DNA of 64,000 bases from a virus. A model generated the notes under the pieces. The model ran no database searches, was not told the origin of the DNA, and worked only from the letters and a program-made list of their open reading frames with translations. Made by a program: the position numbers and the translations under genes. Numbering within the stretch: the first letter of the stretch is position 1; each line of letters opens with the position of its first letter. Of the stretch, positions 31,044-64,000 are shown in pieces. The DNA lies in the IMG/VR virus record IMGVR_UViG_3300020182_001907. One strand, written 5' to 3'.

Positions 31044-31059
31044 AGCAAGGATTTTTTTG

Positions 31060-40000: not shown

Positions 40001-43000
40001 CTATAACTGTGCAATATTTTACAGAATACTATGTACCAATATTCAGTTTAGGTGGTGTTACTAGCGCAATAAAAGGCGGGGAAATATTAGCAGTGTTTAC
40101 CCCATACAATATGGGTGCTGGAGCCACTACTTACTACTGGCGTATAGTTCCTCTTGGAGCATTTGCAAACGAGTTTGTCACAGACAGTGGAAGTTTTAGT
40201 TTAGATGAAAATTTATATTATGATGGAAGTAGACCTATCGATCATAGACAAACTATAACAAGTCTGGTTAACGTTGGTGATACTGTGGATCGAACTTATT
40301 CTATAGAATTTTTTACAAATTCTGGTTACACAGGCGATCCTATTTTTGCAGACACGTTAACCACAGTATCTTCTGTACCAGCATACAATATTCAGGCACG
40401 ATGGTTAGGGTCCAACGGCAAAAATTATACTGGTAATATTGATAAATGGGAAGTATATGTTAGAGAAGAATCTGTTGTAGATTTGTTTGACATACAAATT
40501 AAAAACTTGCCGTACAAAGTTGGTGACATTGTTTACTTGCAAAATGATCGCATAGTAGGAGATGGAACTAGTGCTAATGATATTTACTTTAGAAAAAATA
40601 GTAATCAAGCATGGGCAAAATATAACAGCGGAACTAGAGTAGCAGTAGAATGTTATAATGTAACAGTAACTGACACAGATTATATTGCCCACTTTGCTAT
40701 ACAATTTAAAGGCGAAGACGATTCACCATTGGGCGGTAGCGCTGCTAATTATGAACTGTTTAATTTTACATTCTATAATGCTGCGGTTGCTGGAACAGCA
40801 CTAGTAGACTTTACGGCTAGAATTTACGACAATGTAGAATTCTTCTTTGCTATTACTAGCGAATTAGAAGCATCTGAGGTAACTTATTATACTATTAATA
40901 ATGTATTATCTCAAACTGGCGACGGTTACGTTAAATGGAAATCGTATGACATTGCTTCTAATACAGGTAATAACGATCATTATTTTTTAAATCCAGGTAC
41001 GTATGCACTAGAAGATTTAACTTTCTTTTATCAGTGGGAGCGTATACAGGATGGCAAGTGGACCTCTTTTAGAAACGATCTAGGTGGTTCTGACTGGGTT
41101 AATAAGACATCTAGCGCTTATTATTTGGGGAGCGGTGACGAAGGGTTTTATTTTAATGACATAGGAGATACAACTGTTATCCATAATTGGGCAAACGGTA
41201 TAGACATACGACAGAGAATAATTATATATAATAATCGAGGAAAAATTATAGCAGACCAATACAGTAATGTGGTTACCATGAAAATTAATGTAAGCAACAC
41301 TGCAAGCTCTGTGGGAATCAACAGTATTAGTGTACAAAATGCTACAGAAGGTAGCACTACTTATACTCTAACAATTAACAGCAAAGGAATGATAGGAAAA
41401 GGAGTTCGTGTACAACTAACTAACAATAATTTCTATCACACATCAACAGATTTTTATACTTTAATAAAAAGAAATACTACAAATGTGCGCTTAAATGATC
41501 TTATTCCACAAAAATATTACAATACTGCGGCCACAGAAACTATAACTGTGACTGCTCCTGCTGGAACTGCTGCTGCTGGGTACGAAAGTAAATCTACAAC
41601 ATACACTATTGCGCAAGCGCCCATGGAGTTTGTGTTTGGAAAAGTTGATTATACTTCAGGCGGAAGCACTCTTGAGAAAGGGTTTGGTCAGAGCACTGCG
41701 ATAACAAGTGAAGAAGGCGGTGTGTTAAACTTCCGAGGCTTCTTTAATAACGTACCGCCAGGAGAAGACATTATATTAGAGTTCTACGCATTCACTGATG
41801 ATGGCTCACTTGTGCCTAACGCTAGCATAGTAAACTTAATAAGCGGTACTGATGGTTTAGGCAGTCTTGATAAACCTTATAAAACAGGAACAATAACATA
41901 TCCTTATGTTCCAGCAAATAGTTTGGTTAAAAGAAATCAATCATATCTAGCAAAAATGGAAGGATTAACTTTAAAATATGATCCTAGTTCCTTTGACACG
42001 TTTAAAGGAAATTGGCGAGTTACTACTACGCCGAATAGATTAGTAGACATCACTGGATCAATTAAAAGTGTTAACACTTTGCCTGTGCCATGGAGTCCAT
42101 CAGGACAAGATATCAATGTTATTGCTTCTGAAAATATAAAAGAAGATGGTACAACTGCTAATCCTGTACTACAAGGATACGTGTTTTTCTGGGGTATAAG
42201 TTCAGCGCCAGCAGGAACAACCATTTACTGGAGAATAAATTCTAGTAAAACTACTGCTGTAGCTGGTGTTAATTATGACGGTACACAAAATAACGCAACA
42301 CTGACCACAGATGCGAGTGGTGTCGCATTTCAAAATAAGCCAGGAGTTAGACAAGACGGTGACCCAACAGCTCCTTTGTTTTTCCCTGTAATTAATGACG
42401 GAACATACGCTGTAACAGATCCTGTGATAGCAGTAGACATGTCATTTTACAGTGATTTTAGAACGTCGTACACTGCATCAACTAAGATACTTAATGTTAA
42501 TCCAGCGCCAATACCTGCTCCCACTGTCAATTTAGCACAAGCGTATAGTACTGGAATATTATGGACTTATATCAATGTACAAAATTTTGCAGTAGGAGAT
42601 TATCCTACAGGAACAATACTTACATTTATAATAGACGATGATGGTACAATAAAGAACATAGCAGGGTCAAAAGGAACAATTACAACTGTAAGTACTTGGT
42701 TACCAGCAGGCGAAAGTGCTAGTGATTATGAATGGAAAGTATCATATAGACATAGTGATAGTGCTCTTGCCGACCAAACTGGTGCAATAATGTATGCATA
42801 TAATAATGGGTCTACTGGCAATGCTCAATCGTTTAATACTTGGTATAGTACTACTGGCTCTCAAATAATATTTTCCAGTGGTGCTCAAGGTGTTAACGCT
42901 GATCCTGCAACATCAGTCATGACTATTGAAGTGCGATCTAAGAGTAATAACGCAGTTAAAGATTCAGATTCAACCTCAATATATTGGCTACCGGGTAGTT

Positions 43001-48444: not shown

Positions 48445-49114
48445 TCAAGCTGCAATTGACCGTAAAAATAGATTTTTAGAAGAAAAAAAGTCTGTATCAT
48501 CTGTGAAAGAGTTAGTTAAGCATAAAGTTGAACAACCTTTTACTTTGTGGTTCAATAGTGAAGGTGATATATTATCGTTTTCGCAAAATGAAATAGCACC
48601 GAGGAACGGATGGTACACATATGATTTTGAACCAGAACAGCTATCAGTGTTATACAACGGAACACATAATTATATAGTTGTAAAAGATCAATTAGTTGAA
48701 AACAAATATTCTATACAACGAAAAGTTTTAGAGGAACAGCTAATTTCTAAAGAGGAATATTTCTTACATGAAGTTCCTTTTGTTCGCGTATCACCTAGAG
48801 GGATAAGACTAGAATTAACAAAAAATCATTTAAAAATTGCTCTCGACACTAACATTAAACAATTATACGAAGGCATTAGTCCAGTTAAAGCAACTGCAAA
48901 ATCGCAACGTACATTTGAATTTTATATAACTAAAACTGGCGATCCGCATATACTTTACGATCAAGGATCTGTGTACTTTAGTCAGTTATTAACTAGCGAC
49001 GTAGTTAAGATTAAATTAAATAAACAACTGCCAAAAGAAGTAAGTATATATACTAAAAAACTTTTTGAAAGTAAATATCGTTACAGTGTTACAGACAAAA
49101 GGAAAACGAATTAA
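48434..49114 (+). CDS. Hypothetical protein in the glycosyltransferase operon
   Basis: Overlaps both neighbours; ATG 48434 preferred over the TTG at 48413. No recognisable motif. Confidence 0.6.
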   Translation: MTVNQAAIDRKNRFLEEKKSVSSVKELVKHKVEQPFTLWFNSEGDILSFSQNEIAPRNGWYTYDFEPEQLSVLYNGTHNYIVVKDQLVENKYSIQRKVLEEQLISKEEYFLHEVPFVRVSPRGIRLELTKNHLKIALDTNIKQLYEGISPVKATAKSQRTFEFYITKTGDPHILYDQGSVYFSQLLTSDVVKIKLNKQLPKEVSIYTKKLFESKYRYSVTDKRKTN

Positions 49115-50118
49115 TGAAAGTAGAAGTAACAGAATTAGATATTGTGTATATTAGTTATGACGAACCTAACTGCGAAGAACACTGGTCTGATCTCTTAAAT
49201 AAAGTTCCATGGGCAAAACGTGTTCATGGTGTAAAAGGTTTTGATGCTGCACATAAACGTGCTGCACAAATAGCAGAAACAGACCGGTTCATCACAGTAG
49301 ACGGCGACAATATAGTAATGCCAGACTTTTTTGATCAAACGCTAGATATACCAGACACTGATATGTATGGTAATGAAATAAGCGAAAGCATCTTTAGTTG
49401 GAACGGAAGAAATTTGCTAAACGGATTAGTCTACGGCAACGGCGGACTTAAATGTTGGCCTACAGAATACACTAAAACTATTAGCACACATGAAGCAGCC
49501 ACCGACGGCGAAGGTATGGAGTTTTGTTGGAAGTTAAACTATATTCAACTTAACGACACGTTCTCAGAAGTTCATCAAACTGCAAGCCCATTCCAGGCGT
49601 TCCGCGCAGGATTTAGAGAAGGCGTTAAGATGAGTTTAGATCAAGGCAAGCGAGTACAAGCTAACGAGTTTAAGGAAAAAATCTGGTACGGCAACTATAA
49701 TAGATTACAAGTTTGGTGCAATATTGGTGATGATGTGGAAAATGGGGTGTGGGCTATATATGGTGCAAGGCTGGGCTGCAAAATGACAGTGCTGTCAGAT
49801 TGGGACACTAACAACATTGCAGATTACACTTGGTTTAAGGATTTCTTTTACAAGCAAGTCGCTCCTCAATTTAATGGCAACAAGCAAAATCAGTGTCCTC
49901 ATACCAAGCAGCAGTGGGATGATCATTTATTATATAAAGAGATAACAGCGTTAGGAAATGAAATAAACACTGAAGTTAACCAAATGTTGTTATTTGATCC
50001 AAATCCACTAGTGAGTAAGTTCTTTAAAACAACCTACACTGCTCCTAGGCGTTGGGGTGTTATGGTTAGGGAAAAACAGATTCAAGAATTACTTGAGAAA
50101 GGGTTAATAGGACATTAA
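49114..50118 (+). CDS. Putative phage glycosyltransferase (GT2-like, DGD motif)
   Basis: 'DIVYISYDEPN', 'VHGVKGFDAAHKRAA..AETDRFITVDGDN', 'NGLVYGNGG', 'QAFRAGFREGVK'; N-terminal GT-A-type layout with DxD. Confidence 0.65.
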   Translation: MKVEVTELDIVYISYDEPNCEEHWSDLLNKVPWAKRVHGVKGFDAAHKRAAQIAETDRFITVDGDNIVMPDFFDQTLDIPDTDMYGNEISESIFSWNGRNLLNGLVYGNGGLKCWPTEYTKTISTHEAATDGEGMEFCWKLNYIQLNDTFSEVHQTASPFQAFRAGFREGVKMSLDQGKRVQANEFKEKIWYGNYNRLQVWCNIGDDVENGVWAIYGARLGCKMTVLSDWDTNNIADYTWFKDFFYKQVAPQFNGNKQNQCPHTKQQWDDHLLYKEITALGNEINTEVNQMLLFDPNPLVSKFFKTTYTAPRRWGVMVREKQIQELLEKGLIGH

Positions 50119-52133: not shown

Positions 52134-53684
52134 ATGGCATATAAAAAAGGTATAACAAAATTTCACGGGGCTGGCTCTCAACAAACATTTGATGCTTTAA
52201 GTGAAGTGAGCGATTCCTTTTGTTTAGCAAAATGGCTGCAGGTTACATTGCATTTACAAAATGGGCACAACCATAGTTGCCACCATCCCGTTACACATCG
52301 GGCAGACGAAAATGAAATTGCAAATAATCCTAATGCGCTACACAATACTCTGTACAAAAAAGCCAAGCAAGCACAAATGTTAACAGGAGAACGGCCTACA
52401 GAATGCCAATACTGCTGGAACATAGAAGACATAGGGCAAGACAGTGATGACACGAGTTTTGCAAGTGACAGGATTCACAAGTCAGGCGATATTACTTGGG
52501 CCGGTACAAACCAAATACAGCCGTTGTTAGACAAAATAAAACGGGGCGAAAAAATAAATCCGCGTTATGTTGAAATTTCATTCAGTAATGTGTGTAATTT
52601 TAAATGCAGTTATTGTTCTCCTGTACACAGCAGTCTATGGACTAGCGAAATCAAAAACAAAGGTCCATATGAGTTGCTGTCTAATCCAGGACATAATAAT
52701 CTAGAATGGTTAGAGAAAGAAGATAAACTACCTATACACCACAAAGATTATAATCCATATGTAGAAGCATTTTGGGAATGGTGGCCTGATCTTGTTCAAG
52801 ATCTAGTGTCGTTTAGAATTACTGGCGGCGAGCCATTACTTGAAGAAAATACGTTTAAAGCGATCAAGATGTTACAAGAATCTGAAACTGGATCGCTAAA
52901 AGAGATGAGTATTAACAGCAATGCGTGTGTACCAGACGAAGTTATAGATCGGTATATTCTAGAAATGAATAAATTATTAGATTCTGGAAAAGTTGAAATT
53001 TCTCGGTTCTTTACAAGCTGCGATACCCATGGCGAGCAAGCTGAATATATCAGGCACGGATTTGATTATAAGAGGTGGCTTAAAAATGTAGACAAAATTC
53101 TAACAGAAATACCTAAATCTAGAGTGACAATTATGTGCACTGCTAATCTCATGAGCTTACCAAGATTTCATTTATTTCTCCAAGACGTACATGCGTTAAA
53201 GAAAAAACACTGGAATAATCCACTTAAAGGGCGTGACCAAGGATTAACATTAGATATACCTATATTGCGTCATCCCGCTCATCAAAGTGTAGCTATACTA
53301 CCTAGCACATATGCAGACATGTTAACTCCTAGTTTAGCCTATATGACCAGCCACTGGGTGGATGGACAGAACCGTGATGCCTGGACAAAAAGAACTACTA
53401 ACAAATTCTCACCTGATCTTTTACAAGATATACAAGAAGATGATAAAATGTTTACTGATTTAGAAATGCAGAGGTTTCAAAGACTGATAAAATCAGTTGA
53501 GGAAGATGTAAATGTTAACGAAGGTGTTAATTCTAAAACTTCAATGATTGATTTTTATTTGTTTGTAAACGAACATGATAGAAGACGTGGTACAGATTTC
53601 AAAAAAACTTTTCCAGAACTTATGGATTTTTATAGGTTATGTGAAGAAGAACATAATAAAAGAATTATGGTGAGGAATATATAA
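52134..53684 (+). CDS. Radical SAM protein with N-terminal twitch/SPASM-like Cys cluster
   Basis: CxxxCxxC 'CNFKCSYC', 'ITGGEP', N-terminal 'FCLAKW...HSCHHP...ECQYCW'. Confidence 0.9.
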   Translation: MAYKKGITKFHGAGSQQTFDALSEVSDSFCLAKWLQVTLHLQNGHNHSCHHPVTHRADENEIANNPNALHNTLYKKAKQAQMLTGERPTECQYCWNIEDIGQDSDDTSFASDRIHKSGDITWAGTNQIQPLLDKIKRGEKINPRYVEISFSNVCNFKCSYCSPVHSSLWTSEIKNKGPYELLSNPGHNNLEWLEKEDKLPIHHKDYNPYVEAFWEWWPDLVQDLVSFRITGGEPLLEENTFKAIKMLQESETGSLKEMSINSNACVPDEVIDRYILEMNKLLDSGKVEISRFFTSCDTHGEQAEYIRHGFDYKRWLKNVDKILTEIPKSRVTIMCTANLMSLPRFHLFLQDVHALKKKHWNNPLKGRDQGLTLDIPILRHPAHQSVAILPSTYADMLTPSLAYMTSHWVDGQNRDAWTKRTTNKFSPDLLQDIQEDDKMFTDLEMQRFQRLIKSVEEDVNVNEGVNSKTSMIDFYLFVNEHDRRRGTDFKKTFPELMDFYRLCEEEHNKRIMVRNI

Positions 53685-55201
53685 TGTCAGGGTACGACCA
53701 AGAATTAAAAGATTTTAAAAAAGTATTAGATGGCGTGAGTCCTAGTTTTTGCAGTGCCAAATGGTTGCAAACAACGTTGCATTTACAAAATGGAAGAACA
53801 CATAGTTGCCACCATCCCTCACCGCATGCAATCCCTATACAGGAATTGGAGAATTACGGACCCACAGCATTACATAACACAAAGTACAAGAAAGAGCAGC
53901 GCCGTCAGATGTTAGCTGGTGAGAGACCTAAAGAGTGTCAATACTGTTGGAATATTGAAGATTTGCCAGGGGACCATACTAGTGATAGACCACGTAAAAG
54001 TATGGAACCTTGGGCTAAAGATAAGTTAGATAGTATTATTGCTAGCGATTCTGATGCCAACATATTGCCTACCTATGTAGAAGTTAGTTTTAGTAATGCG
54101 TGTAATTTTAAATGTAGTTATTGCTCCCCTGTGCATAGCAGTCAATGGGTTAAAGAAATACGTGATCATGGACCATATAATTTAGGAAGTAGGATGCACA
54201 ATGGGTTAGAATATTTTGAGGAGACTGGGCAACTACCTTCACCTGACGCTGACACGTATATACTCCATTTTCGGAGTTGGTTGCTGAATACTCTAGGACC
54301 AAGTAGATCATTACAAGTATTGAGAATTACAGGAGGAGAGCCTACTCAAACAAAAGAGTTCGCTAAACTATGGGATATACTTTATCAGGTTCCACAACCT
54401 CAAATGGAGTTATGCATAAACACTAATTTAGGCATGGATAAAAAAGGTTTGGAAGATTTTGCAGACAAAATTAATCTCGCTTATCATCTCAATCTAGTTA
54501 AAAGTGTGACAATACACACCAGTTGCGATGCAGCTGGCGCTCAAGCAGAATACACAAGACATGGTTTAAATTATAATCAGTGGTTAGAGAATTGCCAGGT
54601 TCTTTTAAATACTTTTCCAAATTTAACAATAAACATAATGTGCACTACAAATATATTCTCTTTAACTAGTATGGATCGTTTTTTAGCCGACGTACTAGCA
54701 TTAAAATTATGTTATCATACTACTGAACGGACAGTACCAGTAACAATAGATTTCAGTATATTACGCTGGCCCGGCCATCAATCTCTTTCTATTATGCCAT
54801 ATGACTATGCCGATATGTTTAATACTAGTTTAGCATTTATGGAGAAGTGGAAAGATGATACTGAGTTAGTTGGTGGCAGCGAATCGATAGAGGCTTACGG
54901 AGTACACTATAATAAAACTCATAGTAGACAGTTAAATAAAGGCTTCTATGATTTTGAAATAAGCAAATTTAAAAGAATGATGGAGTTTACCAGGAACCCC
55001 CCTGATCTCAATGAGGGTGTAGTTAGTATCCAGGGGGCGTGGAGAGATTTTTATTTGTTTGTAGACGAACATGATAAAAGACGTGGAACAGATTTTAAAA
55101 AAACTTTTCCTGAGCTAGTAGAATTTTACAATCTCGCTAAAGCTACACATAAAAATAATGTGCATGTGATTTTAACTAATCATAGTACAACATACGAGTA
55201 G
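53684..55201 (+). CDS. Radical SAM protein, tandem paralogue of the upstream gene
   Basis: Same motifs: 'FCSAKWLQ.TLHLQNG..HSCHHP', 'ECQYCWNIED', 'CNFKCSYCSPVHSS', 'ITGGEP', 'EHD.RRGTDFKKTFPEL'. Confidence 0.9.
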   Translation: MSGYDQELKDFKKVLDGVSPSFCSAKWLQTTLHLQNGRTHSCHHPSPHAIPIQELENYGPTALHNTKYKKEQRRQMLAGERPKECQYCWNIEDLPGDHTSDRPRKSMEPWAKDKLDSIIASDSDANILPTYVEVSFSNACNFKCSYCSPVHSSQWVKEIRDHGPYNLGSRMHNGLEYFEETGQLPSPDADTYILHFRSWLLNTLGPSRSLQVLRITGGEPTQTKEFAKLWDILYQVPQPQMELCINTNLGMDKKGLEDFADKINLAYHLNLVKSVTIHTSCDAAGAQAEYTRHGLNYNQWLENCQVLLNTFPNLTINIMCTTNIFSLTSMDRFLADVLALKLCYHTTERTVPVTIDFSILRWPGHQSLSIMPYDYADMFNTSLAFMEKWKDDTELVGGSESIEAYGVHYNKTHSRQLNKGFYDFEISKFKRMMEFTRNPPDLNEGVVSIQGAWRDFYLFVDEHDKRRGTDFKKTFPELVEFYNLAKATHKNNVHVILTNHSTTYE

Positions 55202-55214
55202 AATAGTAAAAACT

Positions 55215-56693
55215 ATGACAGCCAATAAAATCAACAAACAAAAAATAATATTTGGTTATGACTATTTTTTCCCAAGTGGTCCACTACCTAACGCATTAGA
55301 TTTTGATGCAACATTGTTAAATCTCATAAATTCTAAACATCAGAATGCAAAACGTGGTTCTAGTATATTTACTTCTCCCCAACTTTTTCATACAAACATA
55401 TTAGGTATGGTTAGAGGCAATCCTGTACATCATTGGCCTGTAACAGAATACTCTAATTTACAAGCTGCTAATTATTGGGACATACTGGATATACAAATGT
55501 GTAGTGTGTATAGTATCCCCCCAGATGTAAAATACATATACCCAATTGTGTTACCGCCTCATTTAAACGAATGGATTTCTTTAGACGTTGTCCATACAAA
55601 ACCTGGCAACTTTTTTTTCAACAACATGAGTGCGGTGGCACGTCAAGACGTATGTGAAGGAAGAGCTACTATATTTCTAGATTTTGGACAAGAAAATTTT
55701 ATATCGAAATGGGATTTGGACAATTTACATCAGATGTTAGACCTGGTTAACCTGCGTGGTCCCAGTAGAGATAACTCGAATAAGATACCACCAGAACAAA
55801 TAGTATTAGGACATAATACGTTTAACGGCCAGGAGATTTACGAAAACTGGTATTCAGAGGAAGAAAGAAAAATAACGTACAGAAATTGGGACAGTGTTTT
55901 ACATCAAACCTCGAGGTTTTACGATCATGAACATGCGAATTCTTCAGCGTTGCCAACGTTGGAAGAATTAAATAAAGATGTAATTAGACAGTATTATTTT
56001 GTATTCAATAACAAACAGCCTAGACCATGGAGAATAGATTTGTTACTAGCTTTTGAAAGAATGGGATTGCTAGAAAATAAAATCAATTGGAGCTGGCTCA
56101 GTGACCGGGAGTTTGATTTAGATGATCTTAAAAGAAGTTTAGCACTGTTTCCTTTAGACAACAAGTCAGACAAGGATTTGGTCCAGTTAAACAGTCAATT
56201 ACCACGTCCATTAGATGGCGAACCTAACTCCACATTTGATAATGTAAGCGCTTGGACTGACAAAGATAGTAAACACATATTCTTAGACAGTTATTTCTAT
56301 TTGTGTACTGAAACTTACATGGATCAAGACGGCTATGAAAGCATCACAGAAAAAATAGCAAAGCCTATTGCTAACGGCCTTCCGTTTTTATTTGCTAGTT
56401 TTCCTGGTGTATTACGAAAATTAAGAGAATTAGGATTCCGTACATTCAATGGCTTTATCGACGAAAGCTATGACTTAGAGCCTGATGCAACAAAAAGAAT
56501 GGTAATGATAGGAAATGAAGTTGCACGATTATGCGCACTACCAAAAGGTGTAATACATGAATGGTACCACTCGCAGCAAGAAACTTTAATACATAATCAA
56601 CAAAATCTTTTAAAATATTACCAAAATTCTAGCCACACAACATCACTGATAGACGAGTTAGTAAAAAAATCCGGGGGTACAGAGGATAAATGA
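55215..56693 (+). CDS. Putative GT-B glycosyltransferase (GT10/fucosyltransferase-like C-terminus), paralogue 1
   Basis: 'YFYLCTET.....ITEKIAKPIANGLPF.....LRELGFRTFNGFIDESYD' resembles the GT10 'EN....Y.TEK' donor-binding motif. Confidence 0.55.
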   Translation: MTANKINKQKIIFGYDYFFPSGPLPNALDFDATLLNLINSKHQNAKRGSSIFTSPQLFHTNILGMVRGNPVHHWPVTEYSNLQAANYWDILDIQMCSVYSIPPDVKYIYPIVLPPHLNEWISLDVVHTKPGNFFFNNMSAVARQDVCEGRATIFLDFGQENFISKWDLDNLHQMLDLVNLRGPSRDNSNKIPPEQIVLGHNTFNGQEIYENWYSEEERKITYRNWDSVLHQTSRFYDHEHANSSALPTLEELNKDVIRQYYFVFNNKQPRPWRIDLLLAFERMGLLENKINWSWLSDREFDLDDLKRSLALFPLDNKSDKDLVQLNSQLPRPLDGEPNSTFDNVSAWTDKDSKHIFLDSYFYLCTETYMDQDGYESITEKIAKPIANGLPFLFASFPGVLRKLRELGFRTFNGFIDESYDLEPDATKRMVMIGNEVARLCALPKGVIHEWYHSQQETLIHNQQNLLKYYQNSSHTTSLIDELVKKSGGTEDK

Positions 56694-57802
56694 GCGATCA
56701 AGAGATATTGCGCAATTGGGTATGTATGAACCCATTTAAATATTTAGACATTCAGGAAAATTTTTCTTGGGTTTGTTGTCCTAGTTGGATAACACTAACT
56801 CCTATTTCCAGACACTATGAGTTAGAGAACAACGGGGAAATTACTATTGCTGAAGATTGGTTTAATGGAGAAATAATTAAAGATATCAGGCACAGCGTAT
56901 TAGATGGTTCTTACGAGTACTGTGATAAAAAAGTGTGCCCTCATCTTAGCGAAATCGTTAACAATAAACAACCTACACACCCTTTGCCTATAATAACTAG
57001 AGCTGAATTCCAAGAACAATATCTAAAAGAAAAAGATCCTATAACATTTGTTGAGGAATTCAAAGAAGGACCAGAGGAAATATTGTTTGGTTTTGATCGC
57101 GCCTGCAATCTTAAATGTCCCAGTTGCCGTGATGATACAGTAATTAATCTCAAAGAGGAAGATCCATTACAAATTAAAAAAAGAAAGATTGCAGATATTA
57201 TCACTGATAATTTTGCACACAATGCTAAAAAGTTAATGATAACAGGAAGCGGAGATCCTTTTTACAGCAGAGCATTTAGGAATTACTTGCAAGAATTTCC
57301 TATTGACAATTATCCTAACATGGAGATGATACACATAATTACGAATGGTAACTTACTCAATAAAAAAATGTGGGATAGTCTTAATGCCAAAGAGTTTATT
57401 CGCAGTATTGAATTTAGCGTAGACGCAGGAACACAACACACATACGAAACAGTAACTAGGTTAAATGGAGACTGGAATAAACTGTTACAAAACATATCGT
57501 TTGTTGCAACACAAGAACAAATTAACGATATTACCTTAAGCATGGTTGTAAGTGAATTAAACTACACGGAGATGCATACCTTTTGGCTAACTATGACAGA
57601 TTTATTAAAAGATTTTCAGGGTAACCTAACGCTGAATTTTAGACGTATTGTGCATTGGCAACACAGCGCATATCGCCCAGAAGACATAAGAAACATTTCT
57701 GTATTTGATCGTGATCATCCGCAGCACGATAATTTTTTAACTGAAACAAACAAAATAAAAGATTTACCTTTTGTAAGTCATAACTTTCACGAGGTAATAT
57801 AA
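56690..57802 (+). CDS. Radical SAM protein with N-terminal SPASM/twitch-like domain
   Basis: 'CMNPF...CCPSW...YCDKKVCP', then 'CNLKCPSC', 'GSGDPF', 'ITNG', 'SVDAG'. Confidence 0.88.
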   Translation: MSDQEILRNWVCMNPFKYLDIQENFSWVCCPSWITLTPISRHYELENNGEITIAEDWFNGEIIKDIRHSVLDGSYEYCDKKVCPHLSEIVNNKQPTHPLPIITRAEFQEQYLKEKDPITFVEEFKEGPEEILFGFDRACNLKCPSCRDDTVINLKEEDPLQIKKRKIADIITDNFAHNAKKLMITGSGDPFYSRAFRNYLQEFPIDNYPNMEMIHIITNGNLLNKKMWDSLNAKEFIRSIEFSVDAGTQHTYETVTRLNGDWNKLLQNISFVATQEQINDITLSMVVSELNYTEMHTFWLTMTDLLKDFQGNLTLNFRRIVHWQHSAYRPEDIRNISVFDRDHPQHDNFLTETNKIKDLPFVSHNFHEVI

Positions 57803-57805
57803 ACT

Positions 57806-59272
57806 ATGCGACTACTGGCTCAAACTCACCCTAAACCTGAAAAACAAATTACATTTTTATATGATTATGCATTTCCTAACTACTATCTGCCTAATGCAAC
57901 TAGTATGGATTTATTCATGTTAAATTATATGAACAGCCAGCACGATGACGCTCCCAGCCCGTTTACAATAAACAATCATGATGCTGTAAGCAAATTGTTT
58001 AATAATAGAAATTATAATATGGCTGCAAGCAATCACGGATCTACACTATCCGCTTCTTGCTTTGCAAGGATAATAACCATAAACTGTGACACAATGGCTA
58101 ATCGTACAAAGTATCACCGTTATGTATACCCAATACATTTAACAGCGCATCTGGATCACTTTAATGGTAGGCCAGAGGGTGACAACAAGCTTAGTAAGTT
58201 TAAAGTAAATGGGGACTATTTCTATAAGTTTATGAGTGAACAAGCAATTCAAGATGTTCGCAGCGGCAAAGCAACATTATTACTTGATTACGGTTTAGAA
58301 AATTGGATACTTCGCACAGAATACGAACAAATACATGCGACACTAGACGCCGCTGGATTTCCAGCAGAAAACGTTGTGGTGTTTATTAATTCTTTGAATG
58401 CAGAAGATGTTTATAATGAATGGTTCCCAGATAATAAAAGATTACAAGTAGCAAATTTCCCCTATTTAATGATTGCGTCAAGCCAAACTTATTCCTCAGG
58501 AGAGAATTCAGTTACCGAAAAAAACTTATTAGCAAATAAAGACAACCTACGCACTTATCATTATTTGTTTAAAAGTCGTCGTCCTAGATTTCACCGCCAA
58601 GTCATTGGTTTGCATTTACTTAGTAAAGATAATTTAAAAAAAGGCAATTGGAGCTATTTAAGAGCAGGGGAGTTACCTGATCACACATTAAATTCTCTCA
58701 GGATACATTTTCCTGATATTGACTATATAAACATGGACTTAGTTGATTCATTTAACAGTATGCTTCCCAAAACACTGGTTGGCGAAGAAGACCTCACAGA
58801 ACAAACTGTTCAAACTTGGAGAGACTCTGAGTTAAACATATACTCTAACAGCTATTTTTATATCTGCACTGAAACTGGTTTTGGCTGGGAAAGTTGGCAT
58901 CAGAAAAGGGAGCACCATATCCTAACAGAAAAAGTGTGGAAACCCGTAGCTAATTTTCAACCATTTATTTTTTGCACTGTGCCAGGCACACTTGGACGAT
59001 TGCGCGAGTTAGGATACCGCACATTTGATGGCTATATTGACGAAAGTTATGATCTAGAACCAGATTACAACAAAAGAATGCTTATGATATTAAAAGAAAT
59101 AGACAAGTTATGTGCATTGCCACAAGAAGAAATACACAACTGGTATTGGTCCCAATGGGATATTTTGGTACACAACCAGCGTCATTTGATTGATCAATGC
59201 AAATTTGATAATGCTAACCTTCTTATAGAACCTTTAGTACGTAAATTACCAGCTAGGTGGATAAATGAATGA
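57806..59272 (+). CDS. Putative GT10-like glycosyltransferase, paralogue 2
   Basis: 'YFYICTET...LTEKVWKPVANFQPF...LRELGYRTFDGYIDESYDLEPD'. The N-terminus resembles that of 55215 (YDY.FP...LPNA). Confidence 0.55.
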   Translation: MRLLAQTHPKPEKQITFLYDYAFPNYYLPNATSMDLFMLNYMNSQHDDAPSPFTINNHDAVSKLFNNRNYNMAASNHGSTLSASCFARIITINCDTMANRTKYHRYVYPIHLTAHLDHFNGRPEGDNKLSKFKVNGDYFYKFMSEQAIQDVRSGKATLLLDYGLENWILRTEYEQIHATLDAAGFPAENVVVFINSLNAEDVYNEWFPDNKRLQVANFPYLMIASSQTYSSGENSVTEKNLLANKDNLRTYHYLFKSRRPRFHRQVIGLHLLSKDNLKKGNWSYLRAGELPDHTLNSLRIHFPDIDYINMDLVDSFNSMLPKTLVGEEDLTEQTVQTWRDSELNIYSNSYFYICTETGFGWESWHQKREHHILTEKVWKPVANFQPFIFCTVPGTLGRLRELGYRTFDGYIDESYDLEPDYNKRMLMILKEIDKLCALPQEEIHNWYWSQWDILVHNQRHLIDQCKFDNANLLIEPLVRKLPARWINE

Positions 59273-59817
59273 ATTATAAATTACAAAAGTGGGACGAAGT
59301 AGCTACAAGCTACTTACAATCATTTGGGCAACAAGTTCCTGTTTACTCGCCTTCAGTATTTAGGGAATACAGAGGAGAAATTTTTACAACTTTCCACAGT
59401 CAAAAACATCCAGTACTAGAATACTTGACTAGCAATGTGAACATACACGCAAGATTTAGTAAAAGTTACAAAGGAGTTTTGCGAGGATTACATTACGACA
59501 ACAAAACTTGGAAATTAGTTCAAGCAATAGTGGGTGATATGTACTTCGTAGTATTAGACGTTAGACCAGATAGCAGTACATATGGTTTGTGGGAAAGTTA
59601 TATACTCAGTGAACACACCAGAGATCAAGTATTAGTTCCGCCAGGATTTGCTAACGGGTTTTTTGCTTTAACTGATTGCATGTTCCACTACAATTTATTT
59701 TATGAAGGAGAATATGTAGATGAAAATGCACAAGGCATTGTTAAGTGGAATGATAAAAATTTTAACATCAAATGGCCCACAAATAATCCTATTTTACAAA
59801 CAAGGGATGAATCTTGA
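59269..59817 (+). CDS. rmlC: dTDP-4-dehydrorhamnose 3,5-epimerase (RmlC) family cupin
   Basis: 'FREYRG', 'SKSYKGVLRGLHY', 'KLVQAIVG....VVLDVRPDS.TYG.W', 'VPPGFANGF', 'WND..FNIKWP'. Confidence 0.85.
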   Translation: MNYKLQKWDEVATSYLQSFGQQVPVYSPSVFREYRGEIFTTFHSQKHPVLEYLTSNVNIHARFSKSYKGVLRGLHYDNKTWKLVQAIVGDMYFVVLDVRPDSSTYGLWESYILSEHTRDQVLVPPGFANGFFALTDCMFHYNLFYEGEYVDENAQGIVKWNDKNFNIKWPTNNPILQTRDES

Positions 59818-60512
59818 CATACAATGAATGCCATGCTTTTGGATGCAGTTTTACTTTTGGAACCTCGTTAGAGCTAGAAAGCAGCAACTGGAATCGCATG
59901 GACAGATTCTCATCATTGGTTGCTGAACACTTAGGATGTAAGGAAGTAAATCATGGACTTCAAGGATGTTCGACGGCTGGTATCTTGGACAGTGTGTACA
60001 AATTTGCTAATACTCGCAGTAAGCAACAAGCAGCAGACAATCACAATACTTTATTAATTATACAAACCTCTATTCTTTCTAGGTTGCAAGTATCTAGCAG
60101 TAGCCATAATAATTATTATCAGGTAATGAACTCAGACCAACCTGAGCCATGGATTAAAGATTTTTATAACATGTATCTAGCATATTCCTATAATAATTTA
60201 CTTGCATCTCAACAGTTAACTCAAAACATCACTGTGGTTGATGGTTATTTAAAGCATCAAGGATATTCGGTTATTTGGGTACCACTTGATTGGGATGTTA
60301 ATTCACCAAAATCGAGTGATTTTGATCCCAGAATATCAATTGTAGACTTTGGCGATAAAGACCGACTTACTGATATGTTAGTGTTCGCTGACAGACACAG
60401 ACTGCGTTTAGTAGATTTACCTGACGGTCCAAAAGATTACCACCTTTCCAAGAAAGGCCATCAAGAAGTAGCACAAAAGATAATTAATTGTATACAACGG
60501 GACAAGCCATGA
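59814..60512 (+). CDS. SGNH/GDSL-like hydrolase or acyltransferase
   Basis: Block I 'AFGCSFTFG', block II 'NHGLQGCS', C-terminal 'DYHLSKKGH'. TTG start overlaps the upstream TGA. Confidence 0.7.
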   Translation: MTYNECHAFGCSFTFGTSLELESSNWNRMDRFSSLVAEHLGCKEVNHGLQGCSTAGILDSVYKFANTRSKQQAADNHNTLLIIQTSILSRLQVSSSSHNNYYQVMNSDQPEPWIKDFYNMYLAYSYNNLLASQQLTQNITVVDGYLKHQGYSVIWVPLDWDVNSPKSSDFDPRISIVDFGDKDRLTDMLVFADRHRLRLVDLPDGPKDYHLSKKGHQEVAQKIINCIQRDKP

Positions 60513-61138
60513 TCAAAAATTTATCTGCATATGAAAAAGTGCGTGACATCGATTACTCAGTACAAGATCTTAAAGACTTTGAGTTGGATATAGTTGAACA
60601 CTGGGAAGCAGGCAAAATACATGGACCTGTACATCTTAGTCATGGGAACGAACAACAACTAATAGAAATATTCCAGTGTATAAGTAAACAAGATTGGGTG
60701 TTCAGTACATGGAGAAGTCACTACCATGCATTGCTAAAAGGAGTTCCGCCTGATCAGGTAAAATCAGATATATTAGCAGGAAACAGCATTACACTGTCTA
60801 ATGTTGAACATAATTTTACTAGTAGTGCAATAGTAGGTGGGTGTTTAAGTATAGCATTAGGTTTAGCACTGGGGTTAAAAGAAACCGGCAGTAAAGATCG
60901 TGTTTGGTGCTTTATTGGTGACATGTGTTTTGAGAGTGGATTGTTTTATGAGACACACAAATATGCACGTAACTTTAATTTACCTTTACACTTTATAGTA
61001 GAAGATAACGGCGTAGCAACTAACACGCCAACTAAAGAAACCTGGAACGGAAAACGTGATATACCAGACGATGTAATTTATTACACATACGAATCAAAAT
61101 ATCCTCATTACGGTACGGGGAAATGGGTAATATTTTGA
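60509..61138 (+). CDS. Short ThDP-dependent enzyme, pyruvate/acetoin dehydrogenase E1 alpha-like
   Basis: 'GKIHGPVHLSHGNE', 'STWRSHYHAL', 'SAIVGG....ALGLA', ThDP motif 'FIGDM...IVEDN'. ATGA overlap at 60509. Confidence 0.85.
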   Translation: MIKNLSAYEKVRDIDYSVQDLKDFELDIVEHWEAGKIHGPVHLSHGNEQQLIEIFQCISKQDWVFSTWRSHYHALLKGVPPDQVKSDILAGNSITLSNVEHNFTSSAIVGGCLSIALGLALGLKETGSKDRVWCFIGDMCFESGLFYETHKYARNFNLPLHFIVEDNGVATNTPTKETWNGKRDIPDDVIYYTYESKYPHYGTGKWVIF

Positions 61139-62577
61139 ATGTAAAATTTGTTTATCAAAATTGGCATGATGGTTATCCTATTACTAATGGTTTGAATGCA
61201 GCGGCACTAAAAGAAGTGATACGCAGATGGGAAGAACCTTCGTGTAATGCGCAATCTCCAAATGATTTAGCTCACGAAGCCTGCCACGCAGTTGGACTAA
61301 ATTTCCCCTACCATCTAAAATCACAATGGTGGAAGCAAGCCGGTATTGAAGAAGTGAGAGTCCAAGACATAGACCCTCAGAGCGATACTATATGGATATA
61401 TCCTAACAACATAATGCGCGATTTCGGTGGTGTTGTGAGTGATTCCTACGATTTTTTTAGTGTATTATCTCCTGAATTGTTAGCATTTATGAGATCAGGA
61501 ACAGTAAAAATTCTGTTCGACAACTCTCACGATCCCACAGTGAACCAGGCACACTGTGGCCAAAAGAGTATATCGTATAAGTTCGAACTTAATGGTATTA
61601 ATCCTAACAACGTATTGTTTATAGCTGGCGACACCGACAGTGCGGTAGAAACTACAAAACATCTTAAGATGAAAATAATCCCGTTGGGTAAGTTTTATCC
61701 TTGGTGCGCCGCAAATACTTTTGTTGAGGCCTCTAAAGACAGCATTATAGATCCCATAGGCTTAAAGTCAGAGTATGTTACAGCAGCTGATTTGGATTCT
61801 AGTAAGATAAGAAAACACAAATTTTTAAGTTTTAATAGATCTTTACGCCCTCATAGACTTTGGCTTCTATGTAAAAGCATAGAACAAAACTGGTTAAAAG
61901 ACAATTTATTTAGTTTTTTGTCAATGGCTGGTGGCCGGGAGGTAGCGCAGGATATATTACTCAATATAAATTCTGATTACGATATTGCATCCAAAATTCC
62001 AAACAGCGGCTTAAAGAATATTATAGACCGCGATTCGATGCCCTGGTTGCCCCCTATTGCTAAGTTTAGCCAAAAAGTGGTAGACGAAGCTAAAAAAATT
62101 ATTCCGTTAGAATTAGATACACAATCAGTGCCCAGGGACAATCTGGGAGGGTTTAGTACTAGTAGTTGTAATAACAAACAATTTTACTCAGAAAGTTACT
62201 TTAATATCACTACAGAAACTGGACTTGATTATATGTTTCTTAGTGAAAAAACATTTAGACCTATTCAAAATTTACAACCATTTATTTTTATAGGACCAGC
62301 AGGTGCTTTAAAATATTTAAAAACTCAAGGCTTTAAAACTTTTGATTCAGTAATAGATGAATCCTACGATTTGGAAGCAGATCCCAGCATACGACTTACA
62401 ATGATAGCAGAGCAAATAAACAAAATTAACAATATGGACATGCAAACTGTCCACGATATGTACTATAGTTTAACAGATATACTTATACATAATCAACAAC
62501 ACCTACTTACATTTTGCGGAGATTCTCCGTATATAGAAAGTATGGAATACATAAAAGGAATATATAGTGGAAATTAA
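61123..62577 (+). CDS. Putative GT10-like glycosyltransferase, paralogue 3
   Basis: 'FLSFNR..RPHR', 'YFNITTET...FLSEKTFRPIQNLQPF...LK.QGFKTF..VIDESYDLE.D'. Confidence 0.55.
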   Translation: MGNILNVKFVYQNWHDGYPITNGLNAAALKEVIRRWEEPSCNAQSPNDLAHEACHAVGLNFPYHLKSQWWKQAGIEEVRVQDIDPQSDTIWIYPNNIMRDFGGVVSDSYDFFSVLSPELLAFMRSGTVKILFDNSHDPTVNQAHCGQKSISYKFELNGINPNNVLFIAGDTDSAVETTKHLKMKIIPLGKFYPWCAANTFVEASKDSIIDPIGLKSEYVTAADLDSSKIRKHKFLSFNRSLRPHRLWLLCKSIEQNWLKDNLFSFLSMAGGREVAQDILLNINSDYDIASKIPNSGLKNIIDRDSMPWLPPIAKFSQKVVDEAKKIIPLELDTQSVPRDNLGGFSTSSCNNKQFYSESYFNITTETGLDYMFLSEKTFRPIQNLQPFIFIGPAGALKYLKTQGFKTFDSVIDESYDLEADPSIRLTMIAEQINKINNMDMQTVHDMYYSLTDILIHNQQHLLTFCGDSPYIESMEYIKGIYSGN

Positions 62578-63532
62578 ATCAAAAAACATCATTGTTACAG
62601 GCGCAAACGGGCTTGTAGGCTTACCTGCTGTTGAAAAATGTTTAGCAGAAGGAGCAAGTAATGTTTATGCAGTGGATATTAATACTAACAAATTAGAACA
62701 ATTAGGAAAACATCCTAATCTACACATAGTCAACTCAGACTTGACTTATCTAGATAAGTGTGAAGATCTTTTTAAAAATAAAGACATTAACATAGTATTA
62801 CATATTGCAGGCATTAAAGGATCTCCTGCAAGGTCTTCAAAACAACCTTGCGACTTTTTGTTTCCGATGTTAATGTTTAATACAAATATGATTAAAGCAG
62901 CATTTGATGCAAAAGTGGACTGGTTTGTTTATCTATCTTCTGTAGGCGTGTACCAACCTAGCCAAATTATGTATGAAGATGATGTATGGGCAACAGTTCC
63001 ATCTAAAAATGATTGGTATCCAGGCTGGACAAAGCGCATGGGTGAATTAACATTAGAATCTTTACAGGTACAATATGGATGGAACAATTGGACTGTTATT
63101 CGACCGTCAAACATTTACGGGGTTAACGATAACTTTGCTCAAGATGCAACAGTTATTAGTAGTAATATTTGGAAATTAAAAAATGTTCCAGGAAACATTG
63201 TGGCGTGGGGCGATGGATCCCCAAAACGAGACTTTGTATTTAGTGACGATGTTGCTCAAGCAAGCATTGATGCAGTAAAAAAAGAAGTAAATGATATTAT
63301 TAACTTTGGATGCGGCAAAGCAGTAAGTATTAAAGAAACTATAGAAACTATAGTAGATGTTTACACAGAAATTTCAGGCGAAGAACGAAATATTGTTTGG
63401 GATGAAACAAAAATGAACGGAGATCCTATAAGATGTTTAAGTTCAGCTCGCCAAGAAAAATATGATATACTACCTAATACTTCTCTCAGAGATGGGATCA
63501 AAAAAACTATAACTACGTATTTTGATTTATAA
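62567..63532 (+). CDS. NAD(P)-dependent epimerase/reductase (extended SDR, GDP-fucose-synthase-like)
   Basis: 'IIVTGANGLVG', 'LHIAG', 'YLSSVGVY', 'RPSNIYG..DNF', 'WGDGSPKRDFVF..DVA', 'NFGCG'. GTG start with AAGGA SD. Confidence 0.88.
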   Translation: MEIKSKNIIVTGANGLVGLPAVEKCLAEGASNVYAVDINTNKLEQLGKHPNLHIVNSDLTYLDKCEDLFKNKDINIVLHIAGIKGSPARSSKQPCDFLFPMLMFNTNMIKAAFDAKVDWFVYLSSVGVYQPSQIMYEDDVWATVPSKNDWYPGWTKRMGELTLESLQVQYGWNNWTVIRPSNIYGVNDNFAQDATVISSNIWKLKNVPGNIVAWGDGSPKRDFVFSDDVAQASIDAVKKEVNDIINFGCGKAVSIKETIETIVDVYTEISGEERNIVWDETKMNGDPIRCLSSARQEKYDILPNTSLRDGIKKTITTYFDL

Positions 63533-63580
63533 GAAAATAGTTTTGCATTACCGAATTTTTTTGCTGTAAAAGACTGCCAC

Positions 63581-63588
63581 GATAAATA
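63581..63588 (+). promoter_or_regulatory. Putative late promoter box GATAAATA
   Basis: Lies in the 80-nt gap before the last SDR gene. Confidence 0.55.
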
Positions 63589-63612
63589 TTACACACAAAC
63601 ACAGAGACAAAC

Positions 63613-64000
63613 ATGGAACTTACAGACAAAATATTAATAACAGGTGCCAGCGGATTTATTGGCAGTAATATTCTTAAAAATCTTTACAGTAAAGGATATA
63701 GGAACATACGAACTACAAGTCTTTCAAGAGATTTAAGAAATGACTTTACTGGTTGCGAAACAATCGAACATCTTAAAGGTGATTTAAAAGAAGAACAGTT
63801 CTGTACTAGTGTAACCAAGGACTGTGATGTAGTTATAAATTGCGCTGCAAGCACGTCAAATGCACTGGACACCAAAGTCAATCCATTAATCCACGTAACC
63901 CCTAACATAATTATGAATGTTAATTTGCTAGAACAATCATGGAGAAACTCTGTGAGTAAATTTGTATTCATTAGTAGTAACACTGTATACCCCGAGATGG
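63613..64000 (+). CDS. NAD(P)-dependent epimerase/reductase (extended SDR), 3'-truncated by the window end; absent from the ORF track
   Basis: Manual translation gives MELTDKILITGASGFIGSNIL...GDL...DVVINCAA...KFVFISSNTVYP, open to position 64000. Confidence 0.85.
   Translation, partial: MELTDKILITGASGFIGSNILKNLYSKGYRNIRTTSLSRDLRNDFTGCETIEHLKGDLKEEQFCTSVTKDCDVVINCAASTSNALDTKVNPLIHVTPNIIMNVNLLEQSWRNSVSKFVFISSNTVYPEM

Follow-up and report, generated by a model that had tools for sequence, protein, structure and literature searches.

In a 64,000-nucleotide stretch of viral DNA (the window) from IMG/VR record IMGVR_UViG_3300020182_001907, a 209-residue protein resembles the alpha subunit of pyruvate dehydrogenase (PDH) E1. 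Together with a 176-residue beta protein encoded just past the window, it is predicted to be a minimal two-component E1-type enzyme dependent on thiamine diphosphate (ThDP), in which alpha provides the diphosphate-binding (PP) half and beta the PYR half. The predicted cofactor-binding and catalytic residues (Asp, Asn, Glu and His) are retained in alpha and beta, and the pair is embedded in a predicted operon for tailoring heptose-type nucleotide sugars. We regard the pair as almost certainly not a PDH. Our best reading, drawn by analogy with known sugar-branching enzymes, is that it works without E2 as a carboligase and adds an acyl branch from a 2-oxo acid to a nucleoside diphosphate (NDP)-4-keto sugar; we hold this reading to be evenly balanced between right and wrong.

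The window covers bases 9063-73062 of an 87.9-kb record with a CheckV completeness of 18%. The phage is of the T4-like type: upstream of a glycan island it encodes long-tail-fibre proteins and a baseplate wedge protein that matched phrog_10646 with 1043 bits. Coordinates past base 64000 are extrapolated (window position = L003 coordinate + 58937), and G000 refers to whole-record numbering. The two genes of the pair are the following.

60509-61138, plus strand: mini E1-alpha, the ThDP PP domain, 209 residues (Pfam E1_dh, AlphaFold, Foldseek, hhalign and PHROG)
L003:7021-7551 (window 65958-66488; G000 75020-75550), same strand as alpha: mini E1-beta, the PYR domain, 176 residues (Transket_pyr, family profile and AlphaFold)

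The alpha open reading frame (ORF) spans 60488/60509-61138 on the plus strand. The 209 residues are counted from the ATG at 60509, which shares bases with the upstream stop codon as ATGA; close homologues all begin at the same Met. Alpha matched Pfam E1_dh with 57 bits over profile positions 4-173 of 300 only, and its nearest solved relatives were PDH E1-alpha subunits. The AlphaFold model (pLDDT 96) had its best Foldseek matches among the E1-alpha subunits of PDH and branched-chain 2-oxo-acid dehydrogenase (BCKDH), with a TMq of ~0.7, and hhalign aligned the protein with residues 16-188 of the 320 in AcoA. Alpha corresponds to roughly the N-terminal 60% of E1-alpha and is without its final third or more. 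Its cofactor motif reads GDM-x26-EDN, with an Asp-to-Asn spacing identical to that of GDG...ENN in human E1-alpha. GDM is kept in 83 of 86 close homologues, and distant family members and a 735-kb phage have GDG; we take GDM to be a clade feature, not a lesion. Against NCBIfam PDH_E1_alph_y (TIGR03182), alpha scored 89.8 bits and fell short of the 393.85-bit cut-off for a full-length E1. Scores were lower still for transketolase (24.7 bits, cut-off 488) and dxs (19.1 bits, cut-off 466). Beneath the stronger E1_dh match lay a Pfam DXP_synthase_N match barely above its cut-off (23 bits) and a marginal one to TPP_enzyme_C (24.5 bits), and a split-gene transketolase (PDB 6yak/6yaj) was matched weakly (E ~1e-4).

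A single weak match (20.6 bits) was returned when the whole record was searched with Transket_pyr, ~2 kb past the window end and 5.4 kb downstream of alpha in the same operon. The ORF (L003:6997-7551) has 184 codons, and its homologues point to a 176-residue product starting at the ninth. The beta family profile matched human PDH E1-beta (2.9e-8) in the N-terminal domain only, and the AlphaFold model (pLDDT 87.5) superposed on the N-terminal PYR domain of E1-beta with a TMq of 0.84. By hhalign, beta aligned with residues 4-195 of the 339 in AcoB and hence has no Transketolase_C domain. The Glu at position 53 of 176 is invariant and aligns with the cofactor-activating Glu in the P-I-S-E motif of E1-beta, and an invariant Q-H with the active-site His. 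A sequence-only reading of the window had described a 209-residue E1-alpha-like protein with GDM in place of GDG and had seen no beta, E2 or E3 there. The ORF, the partial E1_dh match and the motif agree with that description, and no beta, E2, lipoyl or E3 gene was found within the window; the E1-beta partner that it proposed to seek past base 64000 exists as this PYR-domain gene, without Transketolase_C.

Alpha and beta are obligatorily paired. Among 82 viral loci from IMG/VR, each taken with 10-kb flanks, beta was labelled in 64 by clustering and in 70 by BLAST, on the same strand as alpha and 0.6-10 kb away; where no beta was labelled, the locus is truncated, stops short of beta, or has beta fused to a family of 484-residue proteins, here called G. 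The two genes adjoin each other in the bacterial genomes G001, G223 and G209. In the cultured cyanophages S-SM2 and P-TIM68 they form one gene of 402 and 381 residues, respectively, annotated as 'transketolase central region-containing protein', and fused forms of ~400 residues combining E1_dh and Transket_pyr also occur in metagenomes. The fused gene of S-SM2 is SSM2_198, and the fused forms are ordered PP-then-PYR. Both halves match non-overlapping segments of one family, PHROG 34187 (function unknown; 405 positions), alpha at positions 2-198 (7.6e-52) and beta at positions 237-401 (2.1e-18).

Other domain arrangements were seen as well. At L009:10644-12377 (also in L010) a 577-residue protein joins the beta PYR domain to the C-terminal domain of the G family, and loci L060, L064, L070 and L087 have the same R-A-G-C layout as L009/L010. 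The beta-G fusion hints at a physical coupling of the ThDP enzyme with a putative transferase. Three mini-alpha homologues, P0141, P0144 and P0224, have unusual additions: an intein insert (Hint/Intein_splicing) in one, a LAGLIDADG domain in front in another and an APH-type kinase fusion in a third.

The alpha family is large and of uniform size. About 7,800 database proteins match alpha, the best 120 all being 208-230 residues long and 66-73% identical; clustering at 50% gave 110 clusters below 1e-30, and relatives are encoded on no fewer than 533 IMG/VR contigs. Family members are annotated in databases as 'pyruvate dehydrogenase E1 component alpha subunit'. We searched 151 bacterial genomes of one order with a mini-alpha profile, and the scores fell into two groups: mini-alpha members at 250-290 bits in frames of 212-227 residues (3 of 151 genomes), and canonical E1-alpha subunits at 92-117 bits in frames of ~320-350 residues (11 of 151). 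Bacterium G001 has two full-length E1s besides its mini pair. A tree was built from 33 mini or fused sequences and seven canonical E1-alpha subunits, with a transketolase outgroup; its only comparators were E1-alpha subunits of the canonical type encoded in bacterial genomes, AcoA and a split transketolase. The 33 sequences all fell on one side of one branch with a moderate SH-aLRT of 81, and an earlier tree with three canonical E1s had left the base unresolved. E2 (PF00198), lipoyl (PF00364), E3 dimerisation (PF02852) and Transketolase_C (PF02780) domains were not found in the 88-kb record, which is a fragment. Because absences inside a fragment are weak, whole phage genomes were also searched, and the complete genomes S-SM2, P-TIM68 and LR756501 contained neither PF00198 nor PF02780. 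A comparator acetoin dehydrogenase operon has acoA (320 residues) and acoB (339 residues) followed by E2 and E3. This operon is in L091 (CAKLQH020000018, 'Acinetobacter phage MD-2021a'), together with lipA, a PQQ gene and a diguanylate cyclase gene, and L091 looks like a bacterial chromosome filed as a phage.

The database annotation, and the kinship of the two halves to PDH E1 alpha and beta, their nearest relatives of solved structure, could be taken to mean that the phage carries an auxiliary metabolic E1 (for pyruvate, acetoin or branched-chain substrates) that joins the E2/E3 of the host and redirects central carbon flow. On the sequence evidence we consider the chance of this very small. 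In heterotetrameric E1s the C-terminal domain of beta binds E2. Here beta has no such domain and alpha is without its last third or more; no E2, lipoyl or E3 gene accompanies them, the scores are far under the equivalog cut-offs, the family groups separately, and the gene sits inside a co-directional glycan operon. As the beta C-terminal domain and E2/E3 are missing, the ThDP-bound carbanion would not be transferred to lipoamide. The sequence-only reading had held that the gene is no auxiliary pyruvate dehydrogenase and had proposed to examine its grouping; the missing E2/E3 and the separate grouping, in both the bimodal scores and the tree branch, support that view well. Another explanation is that the pair is a degenerate, non-catalytic remnant, in which the GDM change and the truncations abolish ThDP catalysis and leave a scaffold or binding module. 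It would account for GDM in place of a near-universal GDG and for the reduction of both proteins to single domains. It is nevertheless very unlikely, given that there is little or no variation in the Mg-ligand Asp and Asn, in the cofactor-activating Glu or in the active-site His, that GDG is kept in distant members, that the best 120 homologues are so similar at a fixed length, and that both models are confident. The intein in one homologue argues the same way, inteins being usually inserted at functional, conserved sites.

The region 59269-64000 opens a dense run of genes, all in one direction, which continues beyond the window. Scans for promoters and terminators gave background level only. 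Besides the pair, the run contains the following genes, SDR denoting a short-chain dehydrogenase/reductase.

59269-59817, plus strand: cupin 3,5-epimerase of the RmlC family (Pfam dTDP_sugar_isom, 119 bits; PDB 7m14, 8dco, 8dcl)
59814-60512, plus strand: 232-residue ORF (204 residues from ATG 59898), function unknown, no Pfam or NCBIfam match
61123-62577, plus strand: 484-residue virus-only protein of the G family, candidate glycosyltransferase (Atlas lead)
62567-63532, plus strand: SDR F1, 321 residues, GDP-fucose-synthase-like reductase or epimerase (Pfam Epimerase, 124 bits)
63613-64000, plus strand, cut by the window end (whole gene L003:4676-5668 = 63613-64605): SDR F2, Fcl/GME-like, 330 residues in full
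L003:5665-6597 (64602-65534): Cj1427-like SDR, 310 residues (PDB 6vo6 match)
L003:6594-7019 (65531-65956): conserved 141-residue protein, weak DUF7164 match only
L003:7532-8392: 286-residue unknown protein
L003:8445-10261 (67382-69198): HldE-II-like nucleotidyltransferase, HldE-I-like kinase, cupin and HAD phosphatase (rfaE and Pfam matches)
L003:10258-11754: carbamoyltransferase

The epimerase matched the Campylobacter jejuni GDP-D-glycero-4-keto-D-lyxo-heptose 3- and 3,5-epimerases (7m14, 8dco, 8dcl) at ~1e-34 with 120-123 bits, and true RmlC (1dzr) with 86 bits. The RmlC and SDR flanks noted in the sequence-only reading are thus present as an RmlC-family cupin and SDRs, with the correction that the cupin is closer to the GDP-4-keto-heptose epimerases (123 vs 86 bits). 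F1 scored 129 bits against NCBIfam Fcl (cut-off 500), and its top PDB matches were GDP-L-fucose synthases; both F1 and F2 resemble GDP-fucose synthase, the class to which the C. jejuni C4-reductases belong. The third SDR matched PDB 6vo6/6vo8 at 9.9e-88 (298 bits); we take 6vo6 to be Cj1427, the 2-oxoglutarate-recycling C4-dehydrogenase that makes GDP-4-keto-heptose, and the PDB molecule name fits. The kinase and nucleotidyltransferase, with rfaE_dom_I at 123 bits and rfaE_dom_II at 93 bits (both below cut-off), belong with the adjoining cupin and HAD genes to an activation module. No heptose isomerase (GmhA/SIS) was found in the record. Sequence comparison of the G protein with Pfam, NCBIfam, PHROG and the PDB found nothing; among Atlas clusters that have a name, the one closest to its family is a GT10 fucosyltransferase (0.80), a weak lead by which we treat the family as candidate glycosyltransferases.

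Much of this arrangement recurs in the 82 viral loci. The epimerase was present in 74, lying immediately upstream of alpha in 50, and the G family in 80, mostly directly after alpha; F1 was found in 69, F2 in 67 and the Cj1427-like gene in 63. Homologues of the 232-residue ORF lie between epimerase and alpha in 10-15 loci. The activation module was much rarer, its genes having homologues within 10 kb in only 2-6 of the 82. In S-SM2 and P-TIM68, homologues of the kinase, nucleotidyltransferase, cupin and HAD genes flank the fused gene, which has a Zn-dependent alcohol dehydrogenase directly upstream. Bacterium G223 shows the order nucleotidyltransferase, Gmd-family 4,6-dehydratase (241 bits), alpha, beta, F1-like (41% identical to F1), F2-like, DegT aminotransferase, GHMP kinase, GT2, TylCIII-like C-methyltransferase and DegT. 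TylCIII-like C-methyltransferases and a radical SAM/SPASM protein are encoded around the pair in the 735-kb phage. The phage synteny and the independent bacterial contexts thus give the pair two kinds of constant partner: an enzyme for making an NDP-4-keto sugar, and two SDRs of the Fcl-like type. In F1 and F2 the catalytic Tyr-x3-Lys region seems to be spaced non-canonically (Y-P-G-W-T-K and Y-A-A-V-G-G-M-K), and the two SDRs are kept as a pair beside alpha/beta in phages and in G223.

We propose the following reaction sequence. Alpha and beta would form the ThDP site at their interface, as in the heterotetrameric E1s, and decarboxylation of a 2-oxo acid, pyruvate being the simplest case, would leave an acyl-anion equivalent bound to ThDP. 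With no E2 to receive it, this intermediate could only be protonated or added to a carbonyl. The acceptor would be an NDP-4-keto sugar supplied by the Cj1427-like C4-dehydrogenase (in bacteria by the Gmd-like 4,6-dehydratase) and adjusted by the cupin epimerase. Addition of the acyl anion at the C4 carbonyl would yield a C-acyl-branched sugar, which one of the two Fcl-like SDRs would reduce and a phage glycosyltransferase would transfer, probably to a virion or cell-surface glycan. We favour addition at C4 because the supply of NDP-4-keto sugar is conserved and because YerE/ErwE, AviB1/B2 and Pau11/12 offer precedents (see below), and a 2-oxo acid over a ketose as donor because E1 models score 57-90 bits, against 25 for transketolase and 19-23 for 1-deoxyxylulose-5-phosphate synthase (DXS). 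The acceptor is probably an NDP-4-keto-heptose rather than a 4-keto-6-deoxyhexose, since the neighbours match the C. jejuni heptose module. The carboligase for a C-branched sugar put forward in the sequence-only reading thereby gains comparative support from the keto-sugar neighbours, and the 4-keto-6-deoxyhexose named there as acceptor is probably wrong. The fuller picture, in which large aquatic T4-like phages and scattered bacteria use a minimal E1-type enzyme (~385 residues) to build an acyl-branched heptose that virus-only transferases place on the virion or infected-cell surface, is more speculative, and we would sooner expect it to fail than to hold in all its parts.

Several observations weigh against a carboligase acting on a 4-keto sugar. 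The fused cyanophage genes adjoin the Zn-dependent alcohol dehydrogenase and the heptose kinase/nucleotidyltransferase set, not an RmlC-type epimerase. A bacterial locus, L007, sets the pair beside PanB-like, acetohydroxyacid synthase (AHAS)-like and split-transketolase genes, a context that suggests 2-oxo-acid or ketose chemistry, and one alpha homologue carries an APH-type kinase fusion. If the product is a tertiary alcohol at C4, a pair of C4-type reductases would be in part superfluous. To our knowledge, a branched heptose is known from no phage. YerE and ErwE come from another ThDP superfamily, in which one AHAS-like polypeptide carries the TPP_enzyme_N, M and C domains; YerE is also a flavoprotein. 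For the E1-like precedents, which are of full length, the evidence is genetic only, and they act 'through an unknown mechanism' (PMC4425429). The L007 locus (L007:10001-16772, in a bacterial metagenome-assembled genome (MAG), CAZEER010000004) has four ThDP-type genes in a row within a Wzm/Wzt glycan locus. Its order is mini alpha, mini beta, PanB-like hydroxymethyltransferase, AHAS-like enzyme, split transketolase (N and C halves) and aldo-keto reductases, with ATP sulfurylase/APS kinase upstream.

These observations bear on two further explanations, both of which we judge unlikely and neither more so than the other. In one, the pair transfers ketol or acyl groups in the manner of transketolase or DXS and acts on sugar phosphates, and the ketose phosphate that it makes or extends (of the sedoheptulose-7-phosphate type, or a 1-deoxy-ketose) is then converted to an NDP-heptose or higher sugar by the kinase/phosphatase/nucleotidyltransferase module. 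The HldE-like kinase and nucleotidyltransferase, cupin and HAD genes do lie directly after beta and flank the fused gene of both cyanophages, and the APH-type kinase fusion and the split transketolase nearby in L007 point in the same direction; the lack of GmhA/SIS in the record leaves the route to the heptose phosphate open. Yet the activation module accompanies the pair in 2-6 of 82 loci while the 4-keto-sugar enzymes are near-universal, the similarity is to E1 and not to transketolase or DXS, as the scores above indicate, and the G223 pair sits between a 4,6-dehydratase and the SDRs. In the other, the pair is a stand-alone 2-oxo-acid decarboxylase, like sulfopyruvate and phosphonopyruvate decarboxylases, whose aldehyde is later reduced or aminated to give a non-sugar glycan substituent. 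An E1-type active site with no acceptor protein would suit this chemistry, and the two-domain decarboxylases ComDE and PPDC are similar in size to the pair. The alcohol dehydrogenase directly upstream of the fused gene in both cyanophages, the PanB-like and aldo-keto reductase neighbours in L007 and a tailoring-rich island (carbamoyltransferase, radical SAM proteins and methyltransferases) could all be read this way. Across the 82 loci, however, no alcohol dehydrogenase or aminotransferase is consistently linked, unlike the 4-keto-sugar enzymes, and in Pfam and profile searches the affinity is to E1 and transketolase, not to the TPP_enzyme_N/C families. A phosphonate route was rejected, as phosphoenolpyruvate mutase was not found in the record, and this also speaks against a decarboxylase.

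The surroundings of the pair have further features. The G family has three paralogues in the window (55215-56693, 57806-59272 and 61123-62577), which share 30-35% identity; members have ~400-490 residues and a conserved C-terminal block with T-E-T, T/S-E-K and I-D-E-S-Y-D motifs, and in Atlas structure rows for other phages the G fold is found joined to an SDR or a methyltransferase domain. The 141-residue protein has a median identity of 74% in 33 loci and a tandem duplicate in a bacterial MAG. A small protein at L003:9878-10261 is 45-53% identical to the S-SM2 'phosphoheptose isomerase' genes (L005:19998-20309 and 21639-21968); it begins with D-x-D-x-T and has weak HAD-phosphatase matches and no SIS, and the S-SM2 annotation looks doubtful. 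Radical SAM genes lie at 52134-53684, 53684-55201 and 56690-57802; the first two encode ~510-residue paralogues of 43% identity that are kept in 55 of the 82 related loci. The 1132-residue protein at L003:11778-15176 has internal repeats of ~150 residues and shares a 31%-identical segment with the 334-residue protein at 49114-50118, for which no family match was found. Directly upstream of the glycan island are two giant plus-strand ORFs, 4526-28270 (7914 residues) and 31057-43392 (4111 residues), set between the baseplate wedge gene, phrog_10646, at 386-4522 and tail-fibre genes at 28989-31043; their products are presumably very large proteins of fibres or decorations.

Only a few enzymes are known to attach acyl branches to sugars with the help of ThDP, and the E1-like route (AviB1/B2, Pau11/12) has never been reconstituted (PMC4425429). 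The natural single-chain fusions of the cultured phages S-SM2 and P-TIM68 offer a tractable system for E1-type sugar branching. If the proposed function is right, it would correct a systematic mis-annotation of viral 'pyruvate dehydrogenase E1' as a metabolic gene. It would also define a product of the cyanophage 'LPS gene clusters', for which Sullivan et al. left open whether they are functional or 'stuffer DNA' (PMC3037559). A branched higher-carbon sugar would be new for viruses, and the pair would be a widespread, ready-made carboligase of small size for tertiary-alcohol sugars, from which compact biocatalysts for making chiral tertiary alcohols could be derived (PMC12247030).

Several known systems share parts of this design. 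The heterotetrameric E1s (PDH, BCKDH and AcoAB) are closest in sequence and fold for both halves and share the ThDP-motif spacing, the catalytic Glu and the beta His; they have a full-length alpha of ~320-400 residues, a beta with Transketolase_C, and E2/E3, none of which the mini pair has. Sulfopyruvate decarboxylase ComDE and phosphonopyruvate decarboxylase are minimal PYR plus PP enzymes, split or fused. They belong to the decarboxylase lineage and are ordered PYR-then-PP, whereas the fused forms found here run PP-then-PYR as in E1 and transketolase. The split-gene transketolase (6yak/6yaj) is likewise encoded by two genes and has the transketolase/E1 fold, but its halves of 309 and 311 residues keep the C-terminal domain that the mini pair is without. 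Our literature search found no description of a two-domain-only E1-type ThDP enzyme, split or fused, with the order PP-then-PYR.

The sugar neighbours are most like the capsular heptose tailoring genes of C. jejuni, where an NDP-heptose is converted to its 4-keto form, epimerised and reduced (PMC10680097). The phage has homologues of the Cj1427 C4-dehydrogenase (298 bits), the Cj1430 3,5-epimerase (123 bits) and the Cj1428 C4-reductase (80-92 bits). Its activation genes resemble HldE (ADP-heptose type), not the C. jejuni-type HddA/HddC, and the C. jejuni pathways described in PMC10680097 include no ThDP enzyme. For the chemistry, YerE and ErwE are known to carry out ThDP-dependent acyl branching of NDP-4-keto sugars (PMC9306805). 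In YerE, ErwE and MyGE, which serve lipopolysaccharide (LPS) sugars, the chemistry is the same as that proposed here, an acyl anion being added to an NDP-4-keto sugar before reduction (PMC9306805); the TPP_enzyme_N/M/C architecture of the YerE type was not found in the phage proteins, apart from the marginal TPP_enzyme_C match of alpha. The nearest parallel in gene organisation is given by AviB1/AviB2 (avilamycin eurekanate) and Pau11/Pau12 (paulomycose), PDH-E1-like alpha/beta pairs in branched-sugar clusters, which are proposed to add a C2 unit from pyruvate onto C4 of a 4-keto sugar (PMC4425429, PMC4753412). Like them, the phage pair combines an E1-type alpha and beta among sugar-tailoring genes without E2/E3, deoxysugar genes in their case and keto-sugar genes here; the likeness to AviB1/Pau11 is one of gene context, as judged from published descriptions. 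Pau11 and Pau12 are full-length proteins of 325 and 345 residues that serve actinomycete antibiotic sugars (PMC4425429), while the proteins described here, of 209 and 176 residues, are encoded by a phage among heptose-type neighbours.

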